Virus record (IMG/VR): IMGVR_UViG_3300009431_000003
Length of the DNA stretch: 64,000 bases
Origin: a virus
Strand: one strand, 5' to 3'
Below are positions 10,848 through 63,999 of this stretch, one piece after another (position 1 is the stretch's first letter; every line of letters starts with the position of its first letter). The position numbers and the translations under genes were made by a program. Under the pieces are notes generated by a model, which saw nothing but the letters and a program-made list of their open reading frames with translations, was not told where the DNA came from and did not search any database.

Positions 10848-11466
10848 TAAACCAAAAGACGTTACCAAACCAAAGAGGAAGAAAGCAAAGACACAAACTT
10901 ATGAAGAGTTTGACTTTCGCAGCTCATATTCTTCTGCTTCAACATATGCAATAGAGATTAGGACTCTACCGCCCTCCACTAATGCTCTTTATCAGTGGGT
11001 ACCTCTTGGCAAGTCTAAAAGATGGACACAAATTTTAACACCAAGTGCTCGAAATTGGAAAATTGCATTCAACAGCGCCTTTTCTAAATCTTTTGGGCCT
11101 TTCTTGCATAAGATAACTACATTAGATGAGTCTGTATTATTTAAAAGTCAAACTGTTATATTTGGTCCTTTTGTTATCAACAAAGGTTTCCCTAATAAAG
11201 CAGCGTCTTTGGTTAAGACAATGGACTTGGATAATAGACTAAAGTTTATCCAGGATTGTTTTACTAAAGCCCTTGGGATAAATGATTCAAAAATATTTTC
11301 GATGAAGGCAAATAAATTATATATGCCGGATATTATGGGGGCTACTGTACTTCTCTCTATCTCCGACCAACACTTTGGCATACCCAAAAAACTATTAAAA
11401 GAAGCAGCCAAGCAGCAGATTGTTTTATTGAAAGAACCTGCTGTTCCAGACAAAAGGGGGCTGTAA
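10840..11466 (+). CDS. rusA: RusA-like Holliday junction resolvase
   Basis: PPSTNALY, DLDNRLKFIQD and GINDSKI match the RusA D-x-D-N-x2-K-x3-D...D pattern. Confidence 0.8.
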   Translation: MTNKPKDVTKPKRKKAKTQTYEEFDFRSSYSSASTYAIEIRTLPPSTNALYQWVPLGKSKRWTQILTPSARNWKIAFNSAFSKSFGPFLHKITTLDESVLFKSQTVIFGPFVINKGFPNKAASLVKTMDLDNRLKFIQDCFTKALGINDSKIFSMKANKLYMPDIMGATVLLSISDQHFGIPKKLLKEAAKQQIVLLKEPAVPDKRGL

Positions 11467-13045: not shown

Positions 13046-13246
13046 ATCGGGAAGATATCTGTATACGCTCCAGATGAAACAACTCGATATGAGCTCGACA
13101 GGGCTCAAGCAGAAAAGTTAACAAAAGCAGAAATGCTTCAAATGGCCAATAACATTGGTTTATTGCCTAAAGAAGCTGCTTTTAATGGATTTACTGAAGA
13201 CAAGTTACGAAAGGTAGTTTTAGAAACGGCAACGTCGTTTGAATAG
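13046..13246 (+). CDS. Small HeH/Rho-N-like protein absent from the ORF track, apparent ATC start
   Basis: AAGGAG (13035-13040), 5 nt spacer, ATC, then (M)GKISVYAPDETTRYELDRAQAEKLTKAEMLQMANNIGLL...KLRKVVLETATSFE; it fills the gap up to the terminator. Confidence 0.65.
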   Translation: MGKISVYAPDETTRYELDRAQAEKLTKAEMLQMANNIGLLPKEAAFNGFTEDKLRKVVLETATSFE

Positions 13247-13272
13247 AGGGCTTCGGTCCTCTATTTTTTTTT
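13243..13272 (+). terminator. Rho-independent terminator ending the replication operon
   Basis: ATAGAGGGC-TTCG-GTCCTCTAT stem (cUUCGg loop) followed by a T-tract to 13272. Confidence 0.92.
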
Positions 13273-14137
13273 ACCTCACAATCTTTTTCTTTCTAAGAAT
13301 TCCGTAGGCGATAATTGCAGCAGGTAAGGTAAGGCCTGCGCTTCCATATGTAGCCAATGCAGCCCTAAGGGTCTTTTTCGCAGTGGCTTTCTCTTTATCA
13401 GTTAGGGGGGTATCTTCTAACAGCTTCAGCCCTCGATGGCTTGCTTGTGCTTCTGAAAATATTAAAGGGAGCGCGGTAACTGCCCCAACAGCCCCTACAG
13501 AAATAGCTGCCTTAGGAGCTTTAAGTACGGCCAGAGGAGCCAGCCCTCCAGCACCAGCAAGTCTATTTGCTGCTCTGGTATTAATACGCACTAAAGAATC
13601 AACCAAAGTACCTTTTTCTTCAAGCTGGGTTGCGTGCCCGAGCTCGTGTGCTAATATTCCTGGGGAGTTTTTAAGAATAGAATCACCACCTACAACGATA
13701 CCTGCTTTAAGAGAATCAGCAGTAATGCCGGACTTTCCCGGAAGCATTTCTCGGACCTTCTTTATTGTATCCTTTACATTAGTTTTATCTGTCTTTAGAA
13801 AAAAAGCGTTGTTAAAAGGAGAATGAAATAACTTTTTGTATTTCATTTTACGTTTTACAGTTTTACCTTGTTCTTCCGGAACTACTCCAGTTCCTAAAAT
13901 GGCCTCCGTTAATAGTGCTCGTGGCGTCTTTACTACCGCCCCTGTATATACTTTAACTCCTCGACCTTTGGCAAACTCCTCCAATTTTGCTATCGCTGTT
14001 TCCTTAGTTTTTGTAGGTTCTCCATTATCAAGAGTTTTTTGCATAGTAGACACGGCGGCACTATTAAGCACCCGTTGAGCAAGTACTCCAGCCAACACAG
14101 CATCCTCAGATGAAAATTTAGGACCTGTCTGTGTCAC
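13271..14137 (-). CDS. Membrane-associated neutral zinc metallopeptidase (YugP/Zn_peptidase_2-like)
   Basis: LAHELGHA zincin motif, downstream E-x2-AS-x-RG...L..A..TY pattern and hydrophobic segments. Confidence 0.75.
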   Translation of the reverse strand: MTQTGPKFSSEDAVLAGVLAQRVLNSAAVSTMQKTLDNGEPTKTKETAIAKLEEFAKGRGVKVYTGAVVKTPRALLTEAILGTGVVPEEQGKTVKRKMKYKKLFHSPFNNAFFLKTDKTNVKDTIKKVREMLPGKSGITADSLKAGIVVGGDSILKNSPGILAHELGHATQLEEKGTLVDSLVRINTRAANRLAGAGGLAPLAVLKAPKAAISVGAVGAVTALPLIFSEAQASHRGLKLLEDTPLTDKEKATAKKTLRAALATYGSAGLTLPAAIIAYGILRKKKIVR

Positions 14138-14366
14138 CTTTTATATTCCCCTTTATTCCGAGATACTTCCCAATAAGATACTGACTTCCCATTAAACTAA
14201 CATATGCTGTTAGAAGCTCCCAGGACAATTCAGTAAACCAGCAATGCTTCACCATTAAAACAGAAGCTATACAGTTGCCTATATTTTTCCATAAACGATT
14301 TGCCGAAGGAGTCCCATCAGGCCCAACATATAGTAGATTTTTTATAGTCTTGAATGCATTTTTCAT
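14118..14366 (-). CDS. Small membrane protein, holin-like
   Basis: 82 aa with two hydrophobic segments, near the end of the late operon, TAATG-coupled to the upstream gene. Confidence 0.5.
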   Translation of the reverse strand: MKNAFKTIKNLLYVGPDGTPSANRLWKNIGNCIASVLMVKHCWFTELSWELLTAYVSLMGSQYLIGKYLGIKGNIKGDTDRS

Positions 14367-20300: not shown

Positions 20301-21082
20301 GCTCTATTAATATGAGTATGAGCAATGTCTTCCGCCTTCATTAAAAGGCGCCCACCTAAAGGTGTTTGTTCTCTATGGTCACTTCCTGGAACATCTTCTA
20401 AATTTGATGTCTCTTTAACATTTGTTATCCAAGTTCTTCTATGAGAAAAAAGATCAATTAGTGAGTATTCCTGGCGACCCACGTCCATACCAATCTCAGT
20501 GGATAATTCGTAAGAAGGAGGAGCACCTCCTACAATATCCCGGTTTATAGCGTAAATATAACAACGCCTAAGTTCTGTATCCGAGGGTATAGATGTATTT
20601 TTAAAATAAAAATAACCTACTCGTTCCCATACAAGAATTGGGGGAGCAGGAGGATTAGGCATCAAATGGAGAGGTATTGAGTTTGTTGGATCGGTATAAG
20701 TGCCTGGTACAGCTCCTTGGCCAGAGCTCCAAACAAGTACATCAGCAGCTTCAATTGCCTCCATTAATTCTTGAGTAGTAAAATAATTCTGTACAGCAGT
20801 ATCTGCTATAGGAAGGTTAATTTCTAATCGCCAAATAAGATCTTCATCTAAAGGAACATCTCCAGGAAAGAATGCTGAGATATCTGAATGGGGGCCGCTA
20901 TTTAACTGTATATACATCCCTAAATCAAAAGTAGTTTCCGTGTATGTCGAGAGAATAAACCGGCGAGAAGTATCACACTTCCGCTCATTACGTACTTCAG
21001 CCATCTGTAATAGGTTTGTATCTGACGCTCCCAACAACATGGGCCTACGCCAAATATGCCGTCTTTCTTTATTATTGCCCAT
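14366..21082 (-). CDS. Giant (2238 aa) virion protein, tail fibre/adhesin-like
   Basis: Acidic, Gly/Pro/Tyr-rich beta-type sequence; INRADEAVS and LPLQLPQGAVIESIRV motifs typical of fibre N- and C-terminal domains; lies in the tail module. Confidence 0.6.
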   Translation of the reverse strand: MGNNKERRHIWRRPMLLGASDTNLLQMAEVRNERKCDTSRRFILSTYTETTFDLGMYIQLNSGPHSDISAFFPGDVPLDEDLIWRLEINLPIADTAVQNYFTTQELMEAIEAADVLVWSSGQGAVPGTYTDPTNSIPLHLMPNPPAPPILVWERVGYFYFKNTSIPSDTELRRCYIYAINRDIVGGAPPSYELSTEIGMDVGRQEYSLIDLFSHRRTWITNVKETSNLEDVPGSDHREQTPLGGRLLMKAEDIAHTHINRADEAVSVGVDELNRRTLRRMPVPAKKEVDTSGAVPANRNRLLLSDFTFDESPLFESDNIVYVDRPDSALDEIFRVTDELGNDVFVEGERVRVVAVVSSDNSTLLDDPGDDLQTDLALISPAYQNTGAVGIIGSLQFGKVNQIKYEKIGPSTPDYGSDSVSAGRNAPGYPPFILSVEKKTAVRISAQIKDKDALPFSSPFQMDVKEFDHARIQNSVLADPINHNSEGLDYVPDPYGETFESIREAFEEGLLRLDYEVEGLLDDHTVVLRSRQVSVEGQFPLGMLNDGFGETVAGYGDFGELIITAPGDYFKEPWVFLWPIPRQYKRIFVHFYAAQPDWHPKKITEPEDYRPYYTGYDDVPPIVGQQALPGIAQEHIGRIMGRHYEQTELYHVRPFAYPEAVLDPSNYRMPALWRERDGSYPRSSGTVVEATPYRYEGDPLLTLEDLHRRVSVQGILGGMSRVIDPQLYEYGEVPPSAMADLWTTESGGHFGHVSGYPMTLHNTDQFGGAVPYSSSFKTVPAIARSEGSGPFDVSINSIGVVSYVGISGSGPQFTPDDVGLVIAFSGPANPIRYYPFLIIGYIDNEHVIVESSSIPINGEILPHLTGDATIYESAQYQSANDGAMVRLSREGFEEVDVVAKHGLMLDMVTTDEQMGVPLLIRRPIYFNDLSVVPVDMSIRGTENYQLQTRTAGQFVFDNLRQLGVRDGSEGIVADNATIIEVRGSSYWDGFYNIESFFFDVGTDFGIEIRSISKRPQNVQAKERVLVTFYRINASAGMEKPWVAGAIDPPPAGIPPASNDYPRAALSGAAFQFPDTPQADKVAYGVYGSAWGMDGDFAAHGVVGRANAWEYNPIDPSYGYTSAYASMRYLGTKGFGGVFEGSNISQGGAQGRYVSLLNALNNWDIPDTLDSDLFSLIMGVGGEFLSTSQGRLAAVKGYYEDGLADESPTFPEASVEFVSPTRLRREGALSWLDDRGVSVTVGDYIIILGDSNNEVQTGIYSVFAAGSDVDGDWADVAPYVQGSADTTDREVRGLYAFNTNDPGVFKPDRSGIIFFVLPRNLMTISQSGTGVLGLSVPSPNVHEEYSFDHQWEDPAAVFATVASPYFSVVGGKEEKDDILKTVIRIPGWEGGYVPLVPSTGTVIINHQTTFNGGEFDALYPQIDLMKLYHNVDMDGVVGDYRVSWSYREMEESDSAGIYGYRAPDALVFRAPAIDILRGDVLLRDGYLMTEPFANSTLWDQGGPYAETDPTYPYTWRFLSRTGVLGELSPVAGDNFSLGRPAHGSLNGVIPGDNKDYSIYSYQPGPVVETVYEWRSNNPVRNSLIEMAPISNPGLDSMHYAGYNDITFKVWPDTAGISGDTLNEAYSAGTITRMRGDLLEIAYTDTERQISYTTRHVIETAAFFSDGGVDYCTLTFAPSFPHPEHINHDEEWDPGLTIQIRIRKVGIRESVLMQLGVGAEEYNWYYLIPGSNDEVVPGGWWNDPEYRRAYEQWLQFSVNDVGRVIKVYPNDSDANEFSELAVTDVKIIEGKIAVKLEHPGWVEGDYDSHYEDWQLLAKQWDEVTARRAIIEKEVSADTILVGRDQGDDLGAMRMWHPAADFQSAFHRMMRWQEDILEGPAYSRYSKYEGIYINTGTPSTGHSAAEKEGFLSDWFKEDSYGPGTITYLFDNAPGSIWTVPYPGTFPYKQTEWYCRDGSIQRPFWSQHFRCDVDAFDSKVPYSNAWVLPLQLPQGAVIESIRVYCGLEGFVGFSSAPDFYRKFGIIGGFVKRSAAPKDDHDADQAGFGLGYTQAARYHGSVVQICGQYILAAPTGASIYLRELDPVPFFENGTLSEISPAQRLVSDCFRTYRGSHQETIDAVDYFFTFADFAFDVTCGGLINDNAKGRLELTVGTKLQDRRTLITGEALGTGELPGSPSSNCLAHRFKLYGAHVKWSHFKSQHPAGTREIAETNLTAGSIDINDQTGISHSKRSRIPLRNYPS

Positions 21083-22175
21083 TTACTTTTCCCCCTCTCT
21101 CCTTCATACTACTGAGGCGAGCTTCTGGATTATCAAGCCCACCAGCAATTGTATACAACCTGACACCGTCAATCGACCGGACATAAACGCCGCGAAATAC
21201 CGTCCCAACACTAAAAACTTCGCTAAGAACACCAAAGGCATGATCCATATCAATATCCTTTACTTTGCTAAGAGCTTCTTCTGAACCGACTACCAGACCC
21301 GCAGCAGAAATAGTACTCTCCAAATTAAATCCATCTGCCAAAAAAGTATGCTTTACAGCTCCTCGTATTCCTGCGCTTATAGCGTCTCGGGTAAGAGTAT
21401 TTGGTTTTATTGCTCCAAACACTACCGTCCCGCTTTCCAGAATTGTAGTGTAATCTGCTGGATCAAAAACCTCAAGATCCGATTCTTGGCCGGCCATAAG
21501 ATTAAATGCATGAAATACCCTAACAAAATAATTATTAACTAAAGTCTTTGCTTCAAGCATCCCTGCATTTGGAAACAATTCAGAAACTGTATCATTATCC
21601 AAAAGAATTAGAGGACTAAAATCTTGACCAGAATTGGTGCAGAGATTTTCCAATAAAGCAAAAGCATTAGCATTTGGCCTGGAGCCTTCAGACCTCTTTG
21701 GTAAAGTAGAAATAATACCTACCTTCTTCTTATTTATTGAAAGCCTCACAGCGTCTCGAAATTGATGAATAGCTTGAAGTAGCGGCCTAACACTCCCCGT
21801 ACCAGTCCCTCCACCAGCGCCAACAACAATAAAAGCATGGTCTACCTCGTCGCCCCAAGAACTCCTTAACTTATCAACCACAAGCCCAATATCTTTATAT
21901 AGTGCTTCTTCTCCCTTTTTAGGGTCTTTCGCAGCACCAGAAACAGGAATAATTAGCTTATTTGGGCATTGTATTTTATCCATATCTTGCTCTGTAGTAT
22001 TAATACAAAGAACCCTACGATAACCCAAACGCCAAAAAGCATCAGCAATTCTGCAACCACCGGCACCTGCCCCAACAAAAGACATCTTTAATGCAGGAAT
22101 AAATCCTTCATCCAAAATTCTGTCTTCTTTTTCTTCCGCCTCGCTTACATCTGGTATATCAAAAATATCGCTCAT
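21072..22175 (-). CDS. Tubulin/FtsZ-superfamily GTPase (PhuZ/TubZ/CetZ-like)
   Basis: FVGAGAGGCRIAD, INTT, GAAKDPKKG, signature GAGGGTGTGS, LDND and T7-loop VFDPADY; no FtsZ C-terminal linker or peptide. Confidence 0.92.
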   Translation of the reverse strand: MSDIFDIPDVSEAEEKEDRILDEGFIPALKMSFVGAGAGGCRIADAFWRLGYRRVLCINTTEQDMDKIQCPNKLIIPVSGAAKDPKKGEEALYKDIGLVVDKLRSSWGDEVDHAFIVVGAGGGTGTGSVRPLLQAIHQFRDAVRLSINKKKVGIISTLPKRSEGSRPNANAFALLENLCTNSGQDFSPLILLDNDTVSELFPNAGMLEAKTLVNNYFVRVFHAFNLMAGQESDLEVFDPADYTTILESGTVVFGAIKPNTLTRDAISAGIRGAVKHTFLADGFNLESTISAAGLVVGSEEALSKVKDIDMDHAFGVLSEVFSVGTVFRGVYVRSIDGVRLYTIAGGLDNPEARLSSMKERGGKVNGQ

Positions 22176-22204
22176 AATTGACCCCTATTTGGCTTCCACG
22201 GTTC

Positions 22205-22924
22205 TCAAAATCTAATCTCCCACATTATATAAATTGCATAAGTTCTCTTTTTTGGGATTGGATCAAAAGCTTTATATGCCATAGGTCTTTGTTTATCTGC
22301 GTCGTTAATACCTGTATCCCTTGATCCTGGCGCCCACATTAAAAGCTCTGGAGTAGATCCCCTATCGTAATCAGAGCCATCAGTAAATAACCCGGCCTCG
22401 GAAATAAAACCCTCGCTTTCATGTTCCCCACCCTCAAAAGTAATATCATCTTCTCCAATTACTAACTCGTATCGTACAATAGTACGGGCAGGGTATAAAG
22501 GAAATTGTGGCGGAATAACAATAGGAGCAAGAAATTCTTGTGCTCGAAATTCCATAGGAGTATGTAACCGAGCCACTTTTGATTCTTCGGGAAATACTCC
22601 TTCCCCAAAGCCCATATATCTTATTCGGTCATTACGGTAAGGAGTACCTCCTCCGTCCTCAGACTGGTAAGACATCAACAACGCAAGGTATTCTCGGCCA
22701 GTTAGTGTCCATATATTATTGCCTCTTCGACGCGCCACAATAACTCCTGAAGAATCAAAGGCAGTAATATCAACAAAACCCTCAATAGCTATAGAAGGAG
22801 GAAGTGTTCCTTTGTTTTGTAATTCAATATCTCTTTGCTGAACTACTTGCTTTTTATGTTTTTCCATACAAGCAATTATTGTATCGGATACTCTAACTTC
22901 CTCAGTAAAACCTAAAATACTCAT
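22205..22924 (-). CDS. Baseplate/tail-fibre attachment-type structural protein
   Basis: G.V.I...D...Ni....G...lA...G.G...ISEAGLF...AYK.F..I.K...I.WEIRF pattern resembles tail-collar/baseplate proteins. Confidence 0.55.
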   Translation of the reverse strand: MSILGFTEEVRVSDTIIACMEKHKKQVVQQRDIELQNKGTLPPSIAIEGFVDITAFDSSGVIVARRRGNNIWTLTGREYLALLMSYQSEDGGGTPYRNDRIRYMGFGEGVFPEESKVARLHTPMEFRAQEFLAPIVIPPQFPLYPARTIVRYELVIGEDDITFEGGEHESEGFISEAGLFTDGSDYDRGSTPELLMWAPGSRDTGINDADKQRPMAYKAFDPIPKKRTYAIYIMWEIRF

Positions 22925-46275: not shown

Positions 46276-47073
46276 TTATATCCCTCTATCTTTCATGCGC
46301 TTTTCAATCTTCCCTTTTAAAGAAGATACCTTTGCTGGGGACCATTTATATTGTTTAGCTATCTGACCGGGCTTCATCTGATCAAATCCATCCATTCCCA
46401 TTAGATGCTGAAATACTAATTTTTCCTCGTCAGGCAGCTCATACTTAATTAGTCTCAGCCCCATTTCGTCCAGATCAGGAGGTATCTGAAATGTTGCTTC
46501 CTCACTTCGAGAAGTAACCCAATCGCTTCGAAGCTCGTTTTGTAACCTCGCCACTTCCCTTTCCGGCCATTGAAGCTCTTCTGCCAACTCAAAAGGAGTA
46601 GGCTCTCTTCCTATAGCATCCCTCATTACCGCAAAGGTAGTTTGGAGCTGCCCTACTTTAGAGGCTCTATGATCAGGAATAGATCCTACATTTTGGTACT
46701 TCTTTATATGATGCTCAGCGTCCCTAAGCTTATATGTCGCAAAGGTAGATAGCTTCGCTTTCCTTCCTGGATCATATTCTTTAATCGCCCGAATAGCGGC
46801 ACTCTCAAAGCGTGATTTAATAACTTCCTTTGGTACTCCTTTAATATTTGCGTGGAGATAAGGATTCATCCTCATATTAATAATTGGCCGAAGAGATCTA
46901 AGAACAGGCTTCATGTCTCTCTTCTTCCGGCCCCCATCATTCCATTTATGCCAAAGAGTCAAGTCCTTATTTCCTGCCTCCTCAGCAGAGGGAGCAAGTT
47001 CCACAGTCTTTTTTGCAACAAAAAGAGGACCAAAGCCCAATTTCTGTAAATATGTAATCGTTTCTGTGTCCAT
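46276..47073 (-). CDS. Phage-encoded sigma-70-family factor (FliA/SigF-like architecture)
   Basis: Region 2 AIKEYDPGRKAKLSTFATY, region 3 IGREPTPFELAEELQW, region 4 LPDEEKLVF...QIAKQYKWSPAKVSSL. Confidence 0.88.
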   Translation of the reverse strand: MDTETITYLQKLGFGPLFVAKKTVELAPSAEEAGNKDLTLWHKWNDGGRKKRDMKPVLRSLRPIINMRMNPYLHANIKGVPKEVIKSRFESAAIRAIKEYDPGRKAKLSTFATYKLRDAEHHIKKYQNVGSIPDHRASKVGQLQTTFAVMRDAIGREPTPFELAEELQWPEREVARLQNELRSDWVTSRSEEATFQIPPDLDEMGLRLIKYELPDEEKLVFQHLMGMDGFDQMKPGQIAKQYKWSPAKVSSLKGKIEKRMKDRGI

Positions 47074-53617: not shown

Positions 53618-56600
53618 TTATTCTTCTCCTGATGCTGTTTGGTAAGGTACCCCAGCCACTGCCGCAGACAAAATCTCCGGCAACTGTTTAGTAAAAGAAG
53701 TTAAAGCTTCTGTCTGGGCCACTATTTTTTCTATTATAACCTTAGAATTTGCAACTTCCTCTCCTTGAAGTTTAATCAGCTCTGCGGAAACTTCCGTGTC
53801 TTCCTTACCTGTACTAGTCTCCTTTCTAACACCTTCTCTTGCCCCTTCAGTTGCCAATAACTCCATTTGCCTCTCAAGTTCTTTATAGGTATCATCAGAA
53901 AGCTTACCTAATTTCTGCGTATCTGCCAAAACTTTCTTCTTCAATTTCCTATCACGACCCATTATTGACTTGAATAAATTTGATGCCATAGAACTACCAG
54001 AGCCAAGCTCTCTCAATTCTTCAATCGTTATATCCTTACCTCCGATACTCTCCTCAGACATAATATCTTCAAAATCTGCGAACCTCTCCTGGAAACCTGC
54101 TCTAAGTGCCGCTTTGGTTTTCGCATCAAAAGCTTTACCTAAAGCAATTGCATCTGTTCGCGCCTGTCCAAATTTCCCGCCACGAGCTTGTACTTTCTCG
54201 ATGAGAGAAGCAACATCCTGTCGCTCCCCATACTTAAGTCTCATTCTTTTTTCTCCATACTTAAGTCTCATTCTTTTTTCTGTTGATATCTCCTTTATCA
54301 TGGCTGCTTTATTAGGGGCACCGGATATTCTCTCTAATTCCTCTACCGAGAACTTACCAAAAGCAGCAAAAGCATCAGGACCTAATTTTTCCATCTCATC
54401 ATCTCTGTCAGTTTGCCAATCTATTCCCCAATCATCCTTACCATATTTACTGGCAAAAGCGGAAAAACGCCTACTGTATTCCTGTCGGGCACTGGCAGCC
54501 TCTCCTACAGCCCCACGCCCAAGAGGAGTCTCAACTATTTTTCGAATATTATATGGATCCCCACCGCGCATAGGAAAATCTTCATCAGAACGCAGCATTG
54601 CATCATACTCATTCTGTACTCTGGCATCATAATCAGTTATTTCAGAAAGGCCCTGTCTGCGAGTAATAGATCTTTCAAGGTCCCCAATTTCATTATCAAC
54701 CATTCCCCGTTCTGGGTCATCATAAGCAAGCTTATCTCGCTTTTCTTTCAGGCCAGTAATAACTTCCTGTATGTTTGTCACATCTTTATCAGTAAGATCA
54801 GAAAAAACTCCACTATCGTCCGACTTTCCAATAATAGAAGTCATTCGAGCTATACGCCTTTTAAGTTTTTTCTTTTTTCCTGCATTCTTAGTTTTATCAT
54901 ATTGCTGCTTAAGGGCACCAAGGTCAGTAATATACTGTCTTAGCCTTGTCCCTCGCCTCTCTACACCCCTTGGATCAAACCTTCGCATATACCCACCAAA
55001 TGCCGTGAGTCTCTCCTCGTGAGTCATCTTCCGTAATTCCGGATGCACTCCTTTAACTCCCTCTTTTTCTCTTCCCTGAGATTCAAGGTACCATCGACCA
55101 AAATTTTCTACAGCACTTGGGTCTCCTGCTAAAAGAGCATCCACATCCGCTCCTTCTCCTCTAGCCAGCCCTCTCCTCCGTTCTTCAAGCCCAGCTACCT
55201 CACCGATAGTACCTTTAGTTATTGGAAACACTCCTTCTGCTTCCGGGTCAAATGCTCCAATGCTGGATATGCCAGCTTCACCTATTAAAGGTTTCCTTAT
55301 ATTTGTAAACCTTCCACGAAAACGAGCAGCTTCAGCAGACATAGTAATAGGCGTGCCCGGATCGCCAATCATCTCACTGCGGTCAAAATCTGCAATTGCC
55401 CGATTAAAAGAATCATCCCAGGTTGTTTTGCCTCCACCTTTACCAACACTGCCTTTTTGGTATGCCAGATTTGCACCTATATCACGAAAGTATGTTCTCA
55501 GATCTCCCCAGCCCTCTCGCCAAACTTTCTTCATCCCAGCCCATACATCCTGCCCTTCTTCTCTACGCCTTCTTACATTCTCTTCCGCCTGTTTACGTAA
55601 TGAAGCATACTGAGACTCAACCACATCTCTTTGAGCCCCAGGAGTCTGCTGAACCATTTGAGACATTAATAATGCTTGTCTACGATCCATACCGCCCACT
55701 CTCATAAAAAAAGCGGAAGCAGCCTCTCCTCTACTTTTGCCTCTATAAGAGTCCCCATACCTATCTTGGAAAGTCTTAGAGAAGATTGATCCCCAACCAA
55801 GGCCCCCTAATTGACTGCCGGCCTCTGCAGAAAGTTGTTGTTTATTTAAAAGAAAAGATTCTCTACCAGCCCAGTCCAGTTCTTTATATTTATCTTCTCC
55901 CATACCCCTAAGATCATCAAAGGAAAGCTGACCGGAAATAGCTTGCTGTATCATCTCCTGATCGAGGGCTCCAGTATACCTACCCCTGGAAACTTTACCA
56001 AAAGCCTTAGCAAAAACACCTCGGCTAAGCAACTTCCGTCCAAACCTAGATTGGGCTATACGGTGTCCAGCTTGTTGTGACAATATCGAAGCCTGGGCCA
56101 TCCCCTCTACTCCTCCTATACCAACACCGGCCTGTAACATCCCTTCAGAGAGGCCACCACCGCGATACATCTGATTAACTAGATTAATCTCTCTACCTGC
56201 CCCGGTATACCCTGAAACCTTAGCCCCTCCTAAACCATACCCCATCGCCCCACCCTCTTGTTGTAAGCTATGGAGCTGGTTTACAGTTAATCCTGTAGCA
56301 TCTGCAGTTGCTCTCAATCCTTGAGCGACTCCCCGAGCCGCCCGCGGATTAATTCCCATTCGATTTAAAGACGCAACCATCTTCTGAGCATTTTTAAAGG
56401 TGGCGCCAAGCACCTCAGAGACTTCTATAGTTCCTTCAACAGCCTCTTTAAATCTTTTGGAAAACTCCTTGGCACCACGAACTCCCTGCATCAATCCCAT
56501 TCGATCAAAGTTTTTTAGAGAATCAAGAGCTTTACCTACTTCGCCACCAAACTCTTTTAGGGTAGATAATTCTCTAATTGTTTTATATATCTGATTCTTA

Positions 56601-57073
56601 TCAGCCTGAGAAAATCCCTGTGCTCCGCCAGCTCCACCAAATTTTCCTCCCGCCTGACTCAAATACCTATTTGTATTAAAATAATCTTGAGCCCCTTGGT
56701 ACACATTCTTCCCAGCAAATTCAGCTCCCATCATTCCTGCCGTAGCTGGGATCATACCACCAAACATAGCAACCCTTCCTGCCATCCCTAAAGCCCCACC
56801 AACTTTACCATAGTTGCCGTATTTTAAAGATCCTGCCATGAGACCTAACATTCCCATATTAGTTGCTTTGGAAACTCCACTGCCTACTCCGCCAGCCATA
56901 GACCACATACCAGCGGCATTCTCCATAGGATCTTGGGAGAAAACACTTCCACCCATACTGAGATTTGATGATCCCACTATTTGTTGAGTAAGCATTTGAG
57001 ATTGGGCATTAGTCATCATTGTAGCTTGACGGTGTGTACCCATCATTTGAGTAATCTGTGTGGATGTAAACAT
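53618..57073 (-). CDS. Tail tape measure protein
   Basis: 1151 aa Gly/Ala/Met-rich helical protein at the head of the baseplate operon; GGAGG RBS. Confidence 0.75.
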   Translation of the reverse strand: MFTSTQITQMMGTHRQATMMTNAQSQMLTQQIVGSSNLSMGGSVFSQDPMENAAGMWSMAGGVGSGVSKATNMGMLGLMAGSLKYGNYGKVGGALGMAGRVAMFGGMIPATAGMMGAEFAGKNVYQGAQDYFNTNRYLSQAGGKFGGAGGAQGFSQADKNQIYKTIRELSTLKEFGGEVGKALDSLKNFDRMGLMQGVRGAKEFSKRFKEAVEGTIEVSEVLGATFKNAQKMVASLNRMGINPRAARGVAQGLRATADATGLTVNQLHSLQQEGGAMGYGLGGAKVSGYTGAGREINLVNQMYRGGGLSEGMLQAGVGIGGVEGMAQASILSQQAGHRIAQSRFGRKLLSRGVFAKAFGKVSRGRYTGALDQEMIQQAISGQLSFDDLRGMGEDKYKELDWAGRESFLLNKQQLSAEAGSQLGGLGWGSIFSKTFQDRYGDSYRGKSRGEAASAFFMRVGGMDRRQALLMSQMVQQTPGAQRDVVESQYASLRKQAEENVRRRREEGQDVWAGMKKVWREGWGDLRTYFRDIGANLAYQKGSVGKGGGKTTWDDSFNRAIADFDRSEMIGDPGTPITMSAEAARFRGRFTNIRKPLIGEAGISSIGAFDPEAEGVFPITKGTIGEVAGLEERRRGLARGEGADVDALLAGDPSAVENFGRWYLESQGREKEGVKGVHPELRKMTHEERLTAFGGYMRRFDPRGVERRGTRLRQYITDLGALKQQYDKTKNAGKKKKLKRRIARMTSIIGKSDDSGVFSDLTDKDVTNIQEVITGLKEKRDKLAYDDPERGMVDNEIGDLERSITRRQGLSEITDYDARVQNEYDAMLRSDEDFPMRGGDPYNIRKIVETPLGRGAVGEAASARQEYSRRFSAFASKYGKDDWGIDWQTDRDDEMEKLGPDAFAAFGKFSVEELERISGAPNKAAMIKEISTEKRMRLKYGEKRMRLKYGERQDVASLIEKVQARGGKFGQARTDAIALGKAFDAKTKAALRAGFQERFADFEDIMSEESIGGKDITIEELRELGSGSSMASNLFKSIMGRDRKLKKKVLADTQKLGKLSDDTYKELERQMELLATEGAREGVRKETSTGKEDTEVSAELIKLQGEEVANSKVIIEKIVAQTEALTSFTKQLPEILSAAVAGVPYQTASGEE
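54228..54281 (-). repeat. Perfect 27-bp tandem duplication (EKRMRLKYG x2)
   Basis: CCATACTTAAGTCTCATTCTTTTTTCT at 54228 and 54255. Confidence 0.97.
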
Positions 57074-62448: not shown

Positions 62449-62690
62449 TTCTTCCTCCCAAAAATTTGATCCCAACGCACTCCCCCAACTACTTGAATGA
62501 CGCCTAAGTCAACAACTCCATAAATCCCATCAAGGCTTCCGTGCACAGTAATAGTAGGATTTACAAACCCTTGATTAAGGGAAATATTCTGCATACGCAT
62601 AAGATGATGATGCGCCATCTGATTAATCCGTAATGGTTGGATCGCTCTTGGAGCTGGTGGGATGTCGATCTTTTTCCGTGTGTTACTCAT
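62445..62690 (-). CDS. Hypothetical protein
   Basis: Start set at ATG 62690 overlapping the upstream stop. Confidence 0.65.
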   Translation of the reverse strand: MSNTRKKIDIPPAPRAIQPLRINQMAHHHLMRMQNISLNQGFVNPTITVHGSLDGIYGVVDLGVIQVVGGVRWDQIFGRKK

Positions 62691-63216
62691 ATGATACCGC
62701 CAATGCATACCCAACTTCATAGTCAGGCGTGTTGTAAGATTCCGTCCCTATTAATAGAGAGACATTTTCAGGTACTCTATTATCTTTAATTACTTCAATA
62801 TACCCAAAAGCAAAAACTCTTGTACCTACCACTACTAAAGAGCCGCCAAGCTGTTTATGTAGTTGTTTAGGTTCAGCAGTTAAAATCAGCTTCGGAAACA
62901 TTCGTTCTTGAGCCATCATGTTTAATGCCAGAAGCATCGCAGAAAAAAACCTTTTTCTTGTCACCTCTCCAATGCCTACAGTCCTGGCTTTTTCGTAGAT
63001 ATCCAAAGGCTGCTCGTCAGGCAATGCGTCCACCATAGAAACAACACGCTCAATATACAAAGGCTTACCTATCTCAGCAATCAACTTCTGGACCCCACCC
63101 CTTTGTAGTGCCTGCTCAATTCTCTGCATAAGAGACGCACGTTTCTCAGAACCACTAACAAGCTGAGGCAGTTCTAATATTTGAGATATACGAACAAACT
63201 CTGTTTTTGGCATCAC
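62683..63216 (-). CDS. Hypothetical protein
   Basis: 177 aa, GTGA overlap with the RHH gene. Confidence 0.75.
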   Translation of the reverse strand: MMPKTEFVRISQILELPQLVSGSEKRASLMQRIEQALQRGGVQKLIAEIGKPLYIERVVSMVDALPDEQPLDIYEKARTVGIGEVTRKRFFSAMLLALNMMAQERMFPKLILTAEPKQLHKQLGGSLVVVGTRVFAFGYIEVIKDNRVPENVSLLIGTESYNTPDYEVGYALAVSYE

Positions 63217-63404
63217 AACTGCTCGACCTCCCGCGTAATATATAAAGTAGCTTCTTTTCTACGAAGGTTCTCGAAGGCTTGAGTAATTAAAGCAGACAAA
63301 TTAGTCCTATGCCGTTTAGCATAATCCTGTGCCCACTGCTTCAATTCAGGATCAATGGCGGCATGTACCCTACCGTCTTTCTCTACTTTTGTATACTTAG
63401 GCAT
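63213..63404 (-). CDS. Ribbon-helix-helix (CopG/Arc-like) protein
   Basis: GRVHAAIDPELKQWAQDYAKRHRTNLSALITQAF; AGGAAGGG RBS. Confidence 0.75.
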   Translation of the reverse strand: MPKYTKVEKDGRVHAAIDPELKQWAQDYAKRHRTNLSALITQAFENLRRKEATLYITREVEQL

Positions 63405-63576
63405 TCTCTGCCCTTCCTTTTACTGTATGACAATATGGGCATACCCACTCATTTCCGTACTGATCCATAGGCCTTAAGCAGCTTGAGCAATTAAGTGTCG
63501 GGATCAATTTAACCTTTTCCTTCATACATGGTTTGTTTATTTTCTTCGATTCCTTCAGTTTTTTTTTATCTCTCAA
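63397..63576 (-). CDS. 59 aa Zn-ribbon protein absent from the ORF track
   Basis: GAGGAG RBS, TTG start, MRDKKKLKESKKINKPCMKEKVKLIPTLNCSSCLRPMDQYGNEWVCPYCHTVKGRAENA; just under the 60 aa cutoff. Confidence 0.75.
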   Translation of the reverse strand: MRDKKKLKESKKINKPCMKEKVKLIPTLNCSSCLRPMDQYGNEWVCPYCHTVKGRAENA

Positions 63577-63591
63577 TAAGAAACTCCTCTA

Positions 63592-63999
63592 TTATGGTGT
63601 TATTTCCTTATCTTGCACTCCAGCCTGTTCTTTTAGGTACTGAGTTATGGCTAAATCAAAAGTAGACTTTAGCTCGATAAAGGTCGGGACAAACTCTCCG
63701 TGTTCTGGGTCTGTCCATTTAATCTGACGCGCTGCGTCAAGGCAAAATTGAGTCACCAATGTCTCGTCTGGCGTATTCAAAACATCACCAAACACAGAGC
63801 TTGTTAAAGTAACTGCCTGATCTCCAGCATAGGTAAAAGTTATACTATCTCCATCCACCTTCATCCCTAAAGGACGAAGCTGCCAAATAGCATCAAGAGA
63901 ATCAATTACCTTATCAATCCCCCGCATTCCTGGAAATACTTTATCGCAGATATACTTCTTCACAAAGCTGCCAATTTGTTGAAGCAATTCTGCATTAAT
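63592..63999 (-). CDS. Hypothetical protein, 5'-truncated by the window edge
   Basis: Frame stays open from 63987 up to 63999 (INAELLQQIG...). Confidence 0.7.
   Translation of the reverse strand: MNAELLQQIGSFVKKYICDKVFPGMRGIDKVIDSLDAIWQLRPLGMKVDGDSITFTYAGDQAVTLTSSVFGDVLNTPDETLVTQFCLDAARQIKWTDPEHGEFVPTFIELKSTFDLAITQYLKEQAGVQDKEITP

Follow-up and report, generated by a model that had tools for sequence, protein, structure and literature searches.

The gene at 21072-22175 (minus strand) of a 64,000-nucleotide stretch of viral DNA from IMG/VR record IMGVR_UViG_3300009431_000003, hereafter the window, encodes a tubulin of 367 amino acids (aa), P0001, which, judged from its sequence, is a member of a large, distinct and mostly phage-borne clade nearest TubZ/RepX and not PhuZ. 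Phage cytoskeletons are understood mainly from two models, the PhuZ spindles of phages that build a chimallin nucleus and the TubZRC systems of plasmid prophages. If uncultured aquatic and groundwater phages do hold a third large tubulin clade, tubulin-organized infection would be far commoner than these two models suggest. Members of the clade lack both known partner systems and often lie beside terminase and portal genes or a replisome. No publication describing the clade was found in the literature searched; reviews of jumbo phages cover PhuZ alone, and phages and viruses go unmentioned in a 2023 survey of the FtsZ/tubulin family (PMC9871819).

P0001 is encoded by an uninterrupted open reading frame (ORF) and scores 43.9 bits against the Pfam Tubulin model PF00091 (cut-off 33). 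Its AlphaFold2 model, for which 44 homologues were the input, is confident (predicted local distance difference test score, pLDDT, 91.2; predicted template modeling score, pTM, 0.90) and has the complete two-domain layout of a GTPase domain, the long H7 helix (residues 206-228), the T7 loop and a beta/alpha C-terminal domain, with low confidence confined to the first ~20 residues. The phosphate-binding T1 loop reads GAGAGG (residues 35-40; 22056-22073, minus strand), and its Gly35, Gly37 and Gly40 are invariant in the 44-homologue alignment, as are Gly121-Gly125 and Gly127 of the T4 tubulin signature GGGTGTG (residues 121-127; 21795-21815, minus strand). The T7 synergy loop and the start of H8 carry FDPADY (residues 237-242; 21450-21467, minus strand), which lies at the H7/T7/H8 junction of the model and aligns with the DFAD segment of FtsZ; the catalytic Asp238 is invariant, and Phe237 is present in at least 90% of the alignment. 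A preliminary description of the window had called the gene product a tubulin/FtsZ-family GTPase, and with both motifs intact, the Pfam score above its cut-off and a confident fold, that assignment holds: on sequence and model, P0001 is a tubulin/FtsZ-superfamily GTPase with its catalytic apparatus intact. Sequence and model likewise bear out the acidic N-terminal extension of ~25 aa and the missing FtsZ C-terminal tail that had been noted. The first ~25 residues hold 10 Asp/Glu against 2 Lys/Arg and are modeled at low pLDDT. At the other end, the last helix spans residues 351-364 and the chain stops three residues later, at 367, with a basic or neutral end; neither an FtsZ-type linker or tail nor a match to Pfam FtsZ_C was found in the sequence, the model or the Pfam search.

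The clade to which P0001 belongs is extensive. A word-indexed search returned over 200 relatives (33-49% identity), carried by contigs of up to 298 kb, an exhaustive hidden Markov model (HMM) search of 1.84 billion cluster representatives (clusters at 50% identity) returned 428 at E<=1e-30, and a scan of IMG/VR yielded at least 99 confirmed loci. Almost all members come from uncultured phages, with sporadic chromosomal copies in Planctomycetota. Positions invariant in the 44 aligned members include residues of T1, T3, T4 and T6 as well as Asp238 of the T7 loop, and this pattern speaks for GTP binding and assembly-dependent hydrolysis as conserved properties. The family lacks a C-terminal tail. 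It does have an N-terminal motif of the type hydrophobic-D-x-P-D-I-P. A strict pattern for the motif fits 67 of 127 family sequences, and in 64 of these 67 the motif precedes the T1 loop by 27-32 residues; looser variants, such as M-P-D-I-L-I-P, are present in the remaining sequences, and P-T-L-x-L-E-Q-Y-E-P in cellular copies. In P0001 the motif reads F-D-I-P-D-V-S (residues 4-10; 22146-22166, minus strand) and sits within the acidic disordered extension (pLDDT 53-61); Pro8 is present in at least 90% of the 44 homologues. Separately, representatives of 745-961 aa (P0124, P0130, P0132, P0149, P0167, P0217, P0224 and P0269) each show two separate matches to the tubulin profile and may be tandem double-tubulin fusions.

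Comparisons of sequence and fold point to TubZ/RepX as the nearest characterized relatives. The best sequence match of P0001 among solved structures is Bacillus RepX/TubZ 4ei7 (phmmer E 2.6e-15; family profile E 4.6e-35), followed by FtsZ, CetZ and other TubZs, with no PhuZ among the matches listed; against FtsZ, the family profile gives E 5e-25 to 1e-13. Foldseek ranks TubZ of B. cereus, CetZ2 and TubZ of B. thuringiensis highest for the P0001 model, at template modeling (TM) scores of 0.76-0.79, the matches to TubZ extending along the full length. In a library of viral structures (BFVD), the top match is an 'FtsZ' of an uncultured Caudovirales phage (TM 0.86), and PhuZ models score ~0.57. 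By tblastn, P0001 has no match in 50,697 GenBank phage records, 194 of which are matched by phiKZ PhuZ as a control, and a more typical family member, P0018, finds a sole match in a cultured phage, gp138 of Bacillus phage G (27% identity). A plasmid search gave eight Bacillales RepX/TubZ-like genes at ~25% identity. Aligned by hhalign, the family profile reaches 99.8% with RepX-like proteins (E 2.6e-30; 315 columns, covering both domains), 98.4% with E. coli FtsZ (E 5.4e-15; 204 columns, in the GTPase domain only) and 57.5% with phiKZ PhuZ (E 1e-4; 94 columns).

The phylogeny agrees in setting P0001 apart from PhuZ. For a maximum-likelihood tree, we analyzed 53 sequences left after de-replication, with one FtsZ and no CetZ, by a quick IQ-TREE search under LG+C20 with support from the Shimodaira-Hasegawa-like approximate likelihood ratio test (SH-aLRT). 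P0001 groups with P0002, P0003, P0005 and P0009 in a clade of five (SH-aLRT 100), nested in a 43-member metagenomic family (support 84), and PhuZ forms a separate clade (SH-aLRT 99) on a very long branch (5.25). The deep order of this tree is unreliable owing to long branches, and which of TubZ, CetZ and FtsZ is the sister group of the family is left unsettled by it. That P0001 does not cluster with canonical PhuZ is a solid result at the level of sequence, and it answers the phylogenetic check that the preliminary description had proposed. Membership in PhuZ was rejected on the tblastn and hhalign results, the fold (TM ~0.57), the lack of an acidic C-terminal tail and the separate clade in the tree.

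We propose a model in which P0001 would polymerize head to tail, with GTP hydrolyzed at subunit interfaces, a prediction made because the T1, T3, T4 and T6 loops and the T7 Asp are conserved. A self-assembling filament is a reasonable expectation from a catalytic apparatus predicted to be intact. The filament would be cytomotive, and the acidic, proline-containing peptide ~30 residues before T1 may serve as a handle for a partner or a neighboring subunit. In the infected cell, the filament would organize phage DNA replication and/or packaging, and would do so without chimallin or TubR. We put the probability that a GTP-driven P0001 filament spatially organizes replication and/or packaging of phage DNA at roughly one in two, by analogy with what PhuZ and TubZ are known to do and because terminase-portal and replisome neighborhoods recur in the family.

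These neighborhoods come from a survey of 86 loci. In 36 of them TerL is followed by a protein of ~660 aa and then by the tubulin, which in three of the 36 stands between those two; the ~660-aa protein has a low-confidence model (pLDDT 57.8), yet its Foldseek matches are uniformly phage portals. About 22 of the 86 loci hold a series that runs from a UvsX-like gene to the tubulin, DnaB, a primase and an exonuclease, and seven have a family-B DNA polymerase (PolB), a Clp-like protease/ATPase and then the tubulin. As to habitat, the TerL-portal-tubulin group (for example L007:6138-11170, L014, L031 and L060) represents widespread marine phages, including TARA contigs.

Several considerations weigh against a DNA-organizing filament. 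Such a role rests on analogy and on neighborhoods that are not the same from one phage group to the next. Near-duplicates are numerous among the loci, and de-replication of the tubulins at 65% reduces them to nine TerL-portal, two replisome and two PolB lineages. In the window phage, moreover, the tubulin gene lies within a long operon of unassigned, possibly virion, proteins, a setting from which a virion-related role is possible. The inspected portion of the genome amounts to ~81 kb of 163-183 kb, the window being bases 72271-136270 of Joint Genome Institute (JGI) contig Ga0117908_1000037 (162.8 kb), of which a 182.6-kb version exists.

The tubulin gene looks like a movable accessory gene, to judge from its position in related phages. 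In the window its stop overlaps by 11 nucleotides (nt), at 21072-21082 (minus strand), the start of the downstream gene for a giant protein of 2238 aa (P0121; 14366-21082, minus strand); ORFs and JGI gene calls agree on this overlap, as had the preliminary description. On its upstream side is a 239-aa gene (22205-22924, minus strand) whose product is 52% identical to a 237-aa protein of the sister phage L112 (JGI 3300076257, contig Ga0565094_000001, 171.9 kb). L112 and the window are collinear over 27 kb or more, with proteins 33-52% identical. Its matching pairs (window/L112) have 866/867, 1883/1676, 239/237 and 2238/2406 aa, the last at 35% identity, and it also keeps the Zn-peptidase (33% identity) and a divergent replication block as far as UvsX and PolA. 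At the L112 junction, the TAA of the 237-aa gene directly abuts the giant-gene ATG, and no tubulin was found in the locus by tblastn. The closest tubulin (49% identity) belongs to L003, which is related more distantly to the window phage; there it is flanked by homologues of the window genes at 63592-63987 and 62683-63216. That site is ~40 kb 'upstream' of the tubulin site of the window, on the same strand, and no tubulin remnant was found at the equivalent place in the window.

Because its position varies among related phages, we regard the gene as accessory and movable, and its overlap with the giant gene as compact operon packing specific to this lineage. GC content and GC at third codon positions (GC3) of the tubulin gene are those of the neighboring genes, so it appears to be a long-term resident and no recent arrival. 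The functional tie to the giant gene, and to tail or baseplate assembly, that the preliminary description had drawn is not supported, as L112 keeps the junction without a tubulin and contexts differ across the family. Conservation of the location in relatives, on which that proposal had been staked beforehand, was not found in L112, L003, the TerL-portal group or the replisome group. The interest of P0001 thus lies in its being a representative of an unstudied phage tubulin clade and not in its coupling to a giant gene. Experimental handles are offered by the N-terminal motif and by the natural presence/absence pair of the window phage and L112.

Among the alternatives, the one that survives best, unlikely as we hold it to be, is that P0001 hijacks host division. 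An FtsZ mimic without the membrane-anchoring C-terminal peptide would co-assemble with host FtsZ or cap it and thereby block division. Phages are known to target FtsZ, and an FtsZ-like fold with neither linker nor C-terminal peptide would suit such a mimic, as would the matches of the family profile to FtsZ. However, P0001 shares only ~17-24% identity with FtsZ in structural alignments, and the restriction of the hhalign match to the GTPase domain also speaks against mimicry. The nearest relatives, TubZ/RepX, do not mix with FtsZ, and the family-specific N-terminal motif suggests a partner of its own.

We consider it improbable that P0001 serves segregation of the TubZRC kind, in which filaments would partition a plasmid-form prophage via a DNA-binding adaptor and a centromere, as in c-st and Bacillus plasmids. 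RepX/TubZ are the nearest characterized relatives, Pfam TubZ-like_C is matched by 21 of 44 family members, and one family-bearing IMG/VR record is labeled a provirus. In L003, the tubulin is directly followed (L003:11135-11430, plus strand) by a 34-aa CxxC...CxxC zinc ribbon and then by a 64-aa ribbon-helix-helix-like ORF (11236-11430) with a faint ParG match that is below threshold (E 0.16). The same pair occurs in the window at 63213-63576, the site syntenic with that of the L003 tubulin, as a zinc-ribbon mini-ORF (63397-63576, minus strand) and a ribbon-helix-helix-like ORF of 63 aa (63213-63404, minus strand), with Pfam matches below threshold. This pair is a lead only and not evidence of a partition adaptor. 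Against segregation, none of the context groups has a conserved TubR-like gene next to the tubulin, and the small proteins encoded upstream are unrelated between groups. In the window, the 239- and 144-aa genes upstream of the tubulin gave no DNA-binding matches, and the 239-aa gene is kept in L112, which has no tubulin at the junction. The small genes downstream of the tubulin in the TerL-portal group encode predicted membrane proteins or lipoproteins. Tandem Repeats Finder detected no iteron arrays in the window, where integrase, repressor and partition genes were not seen either, and P0001 is without the flexible C-terminal tail by which TubZ binds TubR. The family is found in terminase-portal and replisome modules, and the phages concerned are large and apparently virulent.

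We seriously doubt that P0001 is an analogue of PhuZ in a compartment-forming phage, where the filament would position a compartment whose shell protein is too divergent to be recognized. At 163-183 kb the genome is large, and it carries, ~11-19 kb ahead of the start of the window, a 2559-aa gene (L115:15255-20864, plus strand, Ga0117908_1000037) whose product combines Rpb2_3 and Rpb2_6 (beta) with Rpb1_2, Rpb1_4 and Rpb1_5 (beta') in one polypeptide, plus LAGLIDADG_3. By these domain matches the product is a fused beta-beta' RNA polymerase, and LAGLIDADG_3 suggests an intein or a homing endonuclease. The preliminary description had credited the phage with PolA and a sigma factor, both of which we located in the window, and had implied that a multisubunit RNA polymerase was absent; this last point is corrected by the fused gene, which lies just outside the window. 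The phage may assemble its own holoenzyme from the fused polymerase and the sigma factor. In Chimalliviridae, by comparison, the RNA polymerase is split, and the replication genes of the window phage are PolA, DnaB and DnaG; both features speak against a PhuZ analogue, as does the place of P0001 outside the PhuZ clade.

The evidence from chimallin itself is less decisive. No chimallin, TubR or centromere iterons had been evident in the window, and we too found no matching gene or array there, although the test for chimallin is insensitive. A tblastn search with phiKZ ChmA gave no match in the window and 10-17 kb upstream of it (up to ~81 kb in all), and neither a ChmA protein search nor the Pfam chimallin model PF25677 detected anything in three near-complete family-bearing IMG/VR genomes; these are insensitive tests, the ChmA protein query finding chimallin in one of three known chimalliviruses and PF25677 in neither of two. 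The chimallin search that had been suggested, run over about half of the genome with an insensitive query, returned no match but carries little weight. Given the weak controls and this coverage, the absence of chimallin is not established.

The operon around the tubulin gene bears on the last alternative. The gene is part of a tightly packed minus-strand string bounded by a 1151-aa gene (53618-57073) and a Zn-peptidase gene at 13271; between them the opposite strand has no gene of 100 aa or more, and the sigma-factor gene (46276-47073) is in mid-string. A gap of 29 nt separates the tubulin gene from the upstream 239-aa gene, there is none downstream, and a GGGG Shine-Dalgarno-like element (22182-22185, minus strand), read from the sequence, lies 6 nt 5' of the tubulin ATG. 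The ribosome-binding site of the giant gene, GGAGAGAGGGGG (21091-21102, minus strand), likewise read from the sequence, sits inside the 3' coding end of the tubulin gene, 8 nt 5' of the giant-gene ATG at 21082. This start is supported because the N-terminus encoded from ATG 21082 is conserved in L112, and the embedded site suggests that translation of the two genes would be coupled. The 3' end of the operon (13271-14366, minus strand) holds an ORF of 82 aa and the gene of a 288-aa protein with a match to Pfam Zn_peptidase_2 (E 8e-9), and a strong hairpin terminator follows the Zn-peptidase gene at 13241-13266. Near the tubulin gene, nothing useful came from a candidate promoter motif, CATAAGARTA, or from generic scans for promoters and terminators.

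Little of this operon can be assigned to families. The proteins of 2238, 1883, 866, 2190, 1113, 239 and 144 aa, among others, match no Pfam (even at E<=10) or PHROG family, and the operon proteins near the tubulin have no PDB sequence match and no usable ESM Atlas neighbor. A search of 5.8 billion proteins returned one homologue of the 2238-aa protein, P0122 of L112 (35% identity). Neither 'giant tail-fibre gene' nor 'baseplate operon', the labels given in the preliminary description, is supported by any Pfam, PHROG, PDB-sequence or Atlas match. The local annotation changes accordingly, in that the 'tail-fibre coupling' is incidental and the phage has an RNA polymerase of multisubunit type. 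That P0001 acts as an assembly or transport factor for its giant neighbor, the tail or the virion, or is packaged as a virion tubulin, is very improbable, for although the gene lies in a packed operon of very large proteins and overlaps a gene whose ribosome-binding site it contains, the sister phage keeps operon and giant gene with no tubulin at the junction, the closest tubulin is elsewhere in the operon of its phage, no link to tail genes runs through the family, and the neighbors are not identifiable as tail proteins.

Copies of the family outside phages are sporadic. A scan of one genome per prokaryotic species found at least nine loci, seven of them in metagenome-assembled genomes (MAGs) named Planctomycetota (Pirellulales, Planctomycetaceae and Sedimentisphaerales), one in an unclassified MAG with a copy closely like those, and one in a Flavobacterium MAG that is a phage contig (L110). 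The Planctomycetota-type contigs include L103:5776-8963, L111:5477-8442, L105, L106, L108 and L109. Ordinary metabolic genes lie beside the tubulin in the three that were scanned with Pfam (L103, L106 and L111), two MAG contigs carry tandem tubulin paralogues, and in L103:7191-8963 there is a fusion to AAA_lid_14 and a Fis-type helix-turn-helix. None of 300 other sampled Planctomycetota genomes matches at E<=1e-40, and on this count we rejected the family as a conserved Planctomycetota division protein. Such scattered cellular copies fit transfer between phages and cells, not an ancestral planctomycete function. As a further observation, contig L110 of the Flavobacterium sp. MAG (CAYOCC010000021.1) is ~90% protein-identical to the PolB-group phages L087 and L089, which suggests a Flavobacterium host for that group, or co-binning.

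In a broader context, it is tempting to speculate that this undescribed and widespread tubulin branch, which has no cultured host-virus system, provides large phages that are not known to build a nucleus with a cytoskeleton complete in itself. Its N-terminal motif, and not a C-terminal tail, would engage cargo or subunits, its filaments would organize packaging or replication, as the frequent TerL-portal-tubulin and replisome contexts hint, and the gene would move between phages and, sporadically, into Planctomycetota chromosomes. We offer this fuller picture tentatively, as one that we judge somewhat more apt to fail than to hold.

How P0001 relates to known systems is clearest when the more distant ones are taken first. 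Planctomycetes also harbor FtsZl1 and FtsZl2, two divergent families of FtsZ-like proteins (Makarova and Koonin 2010, PMC2875224). T6-H7 is missing from FtsZl1, which carries coiled-coil and helical regions at its C-terminal end, and FtsZl2 has an unrelated C-terminus of ~300 aa (PMC2875224). Members of the P0001 family give weak matches to Pfam Tubulin_2; membership in either family was rejected on architecture, P0001 having a canonical H7/T7 and C-terminal domain within 367 aa. The FtsZ/tubulin-like gp138 of Bacillus phage G falls outside the P0001 family on a long branch, and it was not detected in proteomics of phage G particles (bioRxiv 10.1101/2024.12.16.628780). CetZ resembles P0001 in fold (CetZ2 4b45, TM 0.77/0.84) and in profile (E 8e-21), but CetZ is archaeal and chromosomal, and the comparison is one of fold and profile.

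PhuZ, the spindle tubulin of Chimalliviridae, is like P0001 a phage-encoded tubulin of a large phage with its own RNA polymerase, and a role in DNA positioning is plausible for both. It differs in its extended acidic C-terminal tail, which P0001 lacks, and in a sequence so barely related that tblastn gives no cross-matches. TubZ of Clostridium phage c-st is closer, being phage-borne and of TubZ type (profile E 1e-19; Foldseek E 3e-19). Yet c-st TubZ adjoins tubR (CST190) in a plasmid prophage, a partner that P0001 does not have, and it falls outside the P0001 family, joining PhuZ on long branches (SH-aLRT 89) in a placement that is flagged as unsure. TubZ/RepX of pBtoxis and pXO1, which act in type III segregation, provide the best match in both sequence and fold (Foldseek E 6e-23, TM 0.78), and a TubZ-like C-terminal domain is recognized in about half of the P0001 family, though not in P0001. 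Identity is ~23-26%, and P0001 has neither a tubR next to it nor tubC iterons nor a long C-terminal tail. Where the plasmid proteins have these, the family of P0001 has a conserved N-terminal acidic/proline motif and resides in the packaging and replication modules of large uncultured phages.

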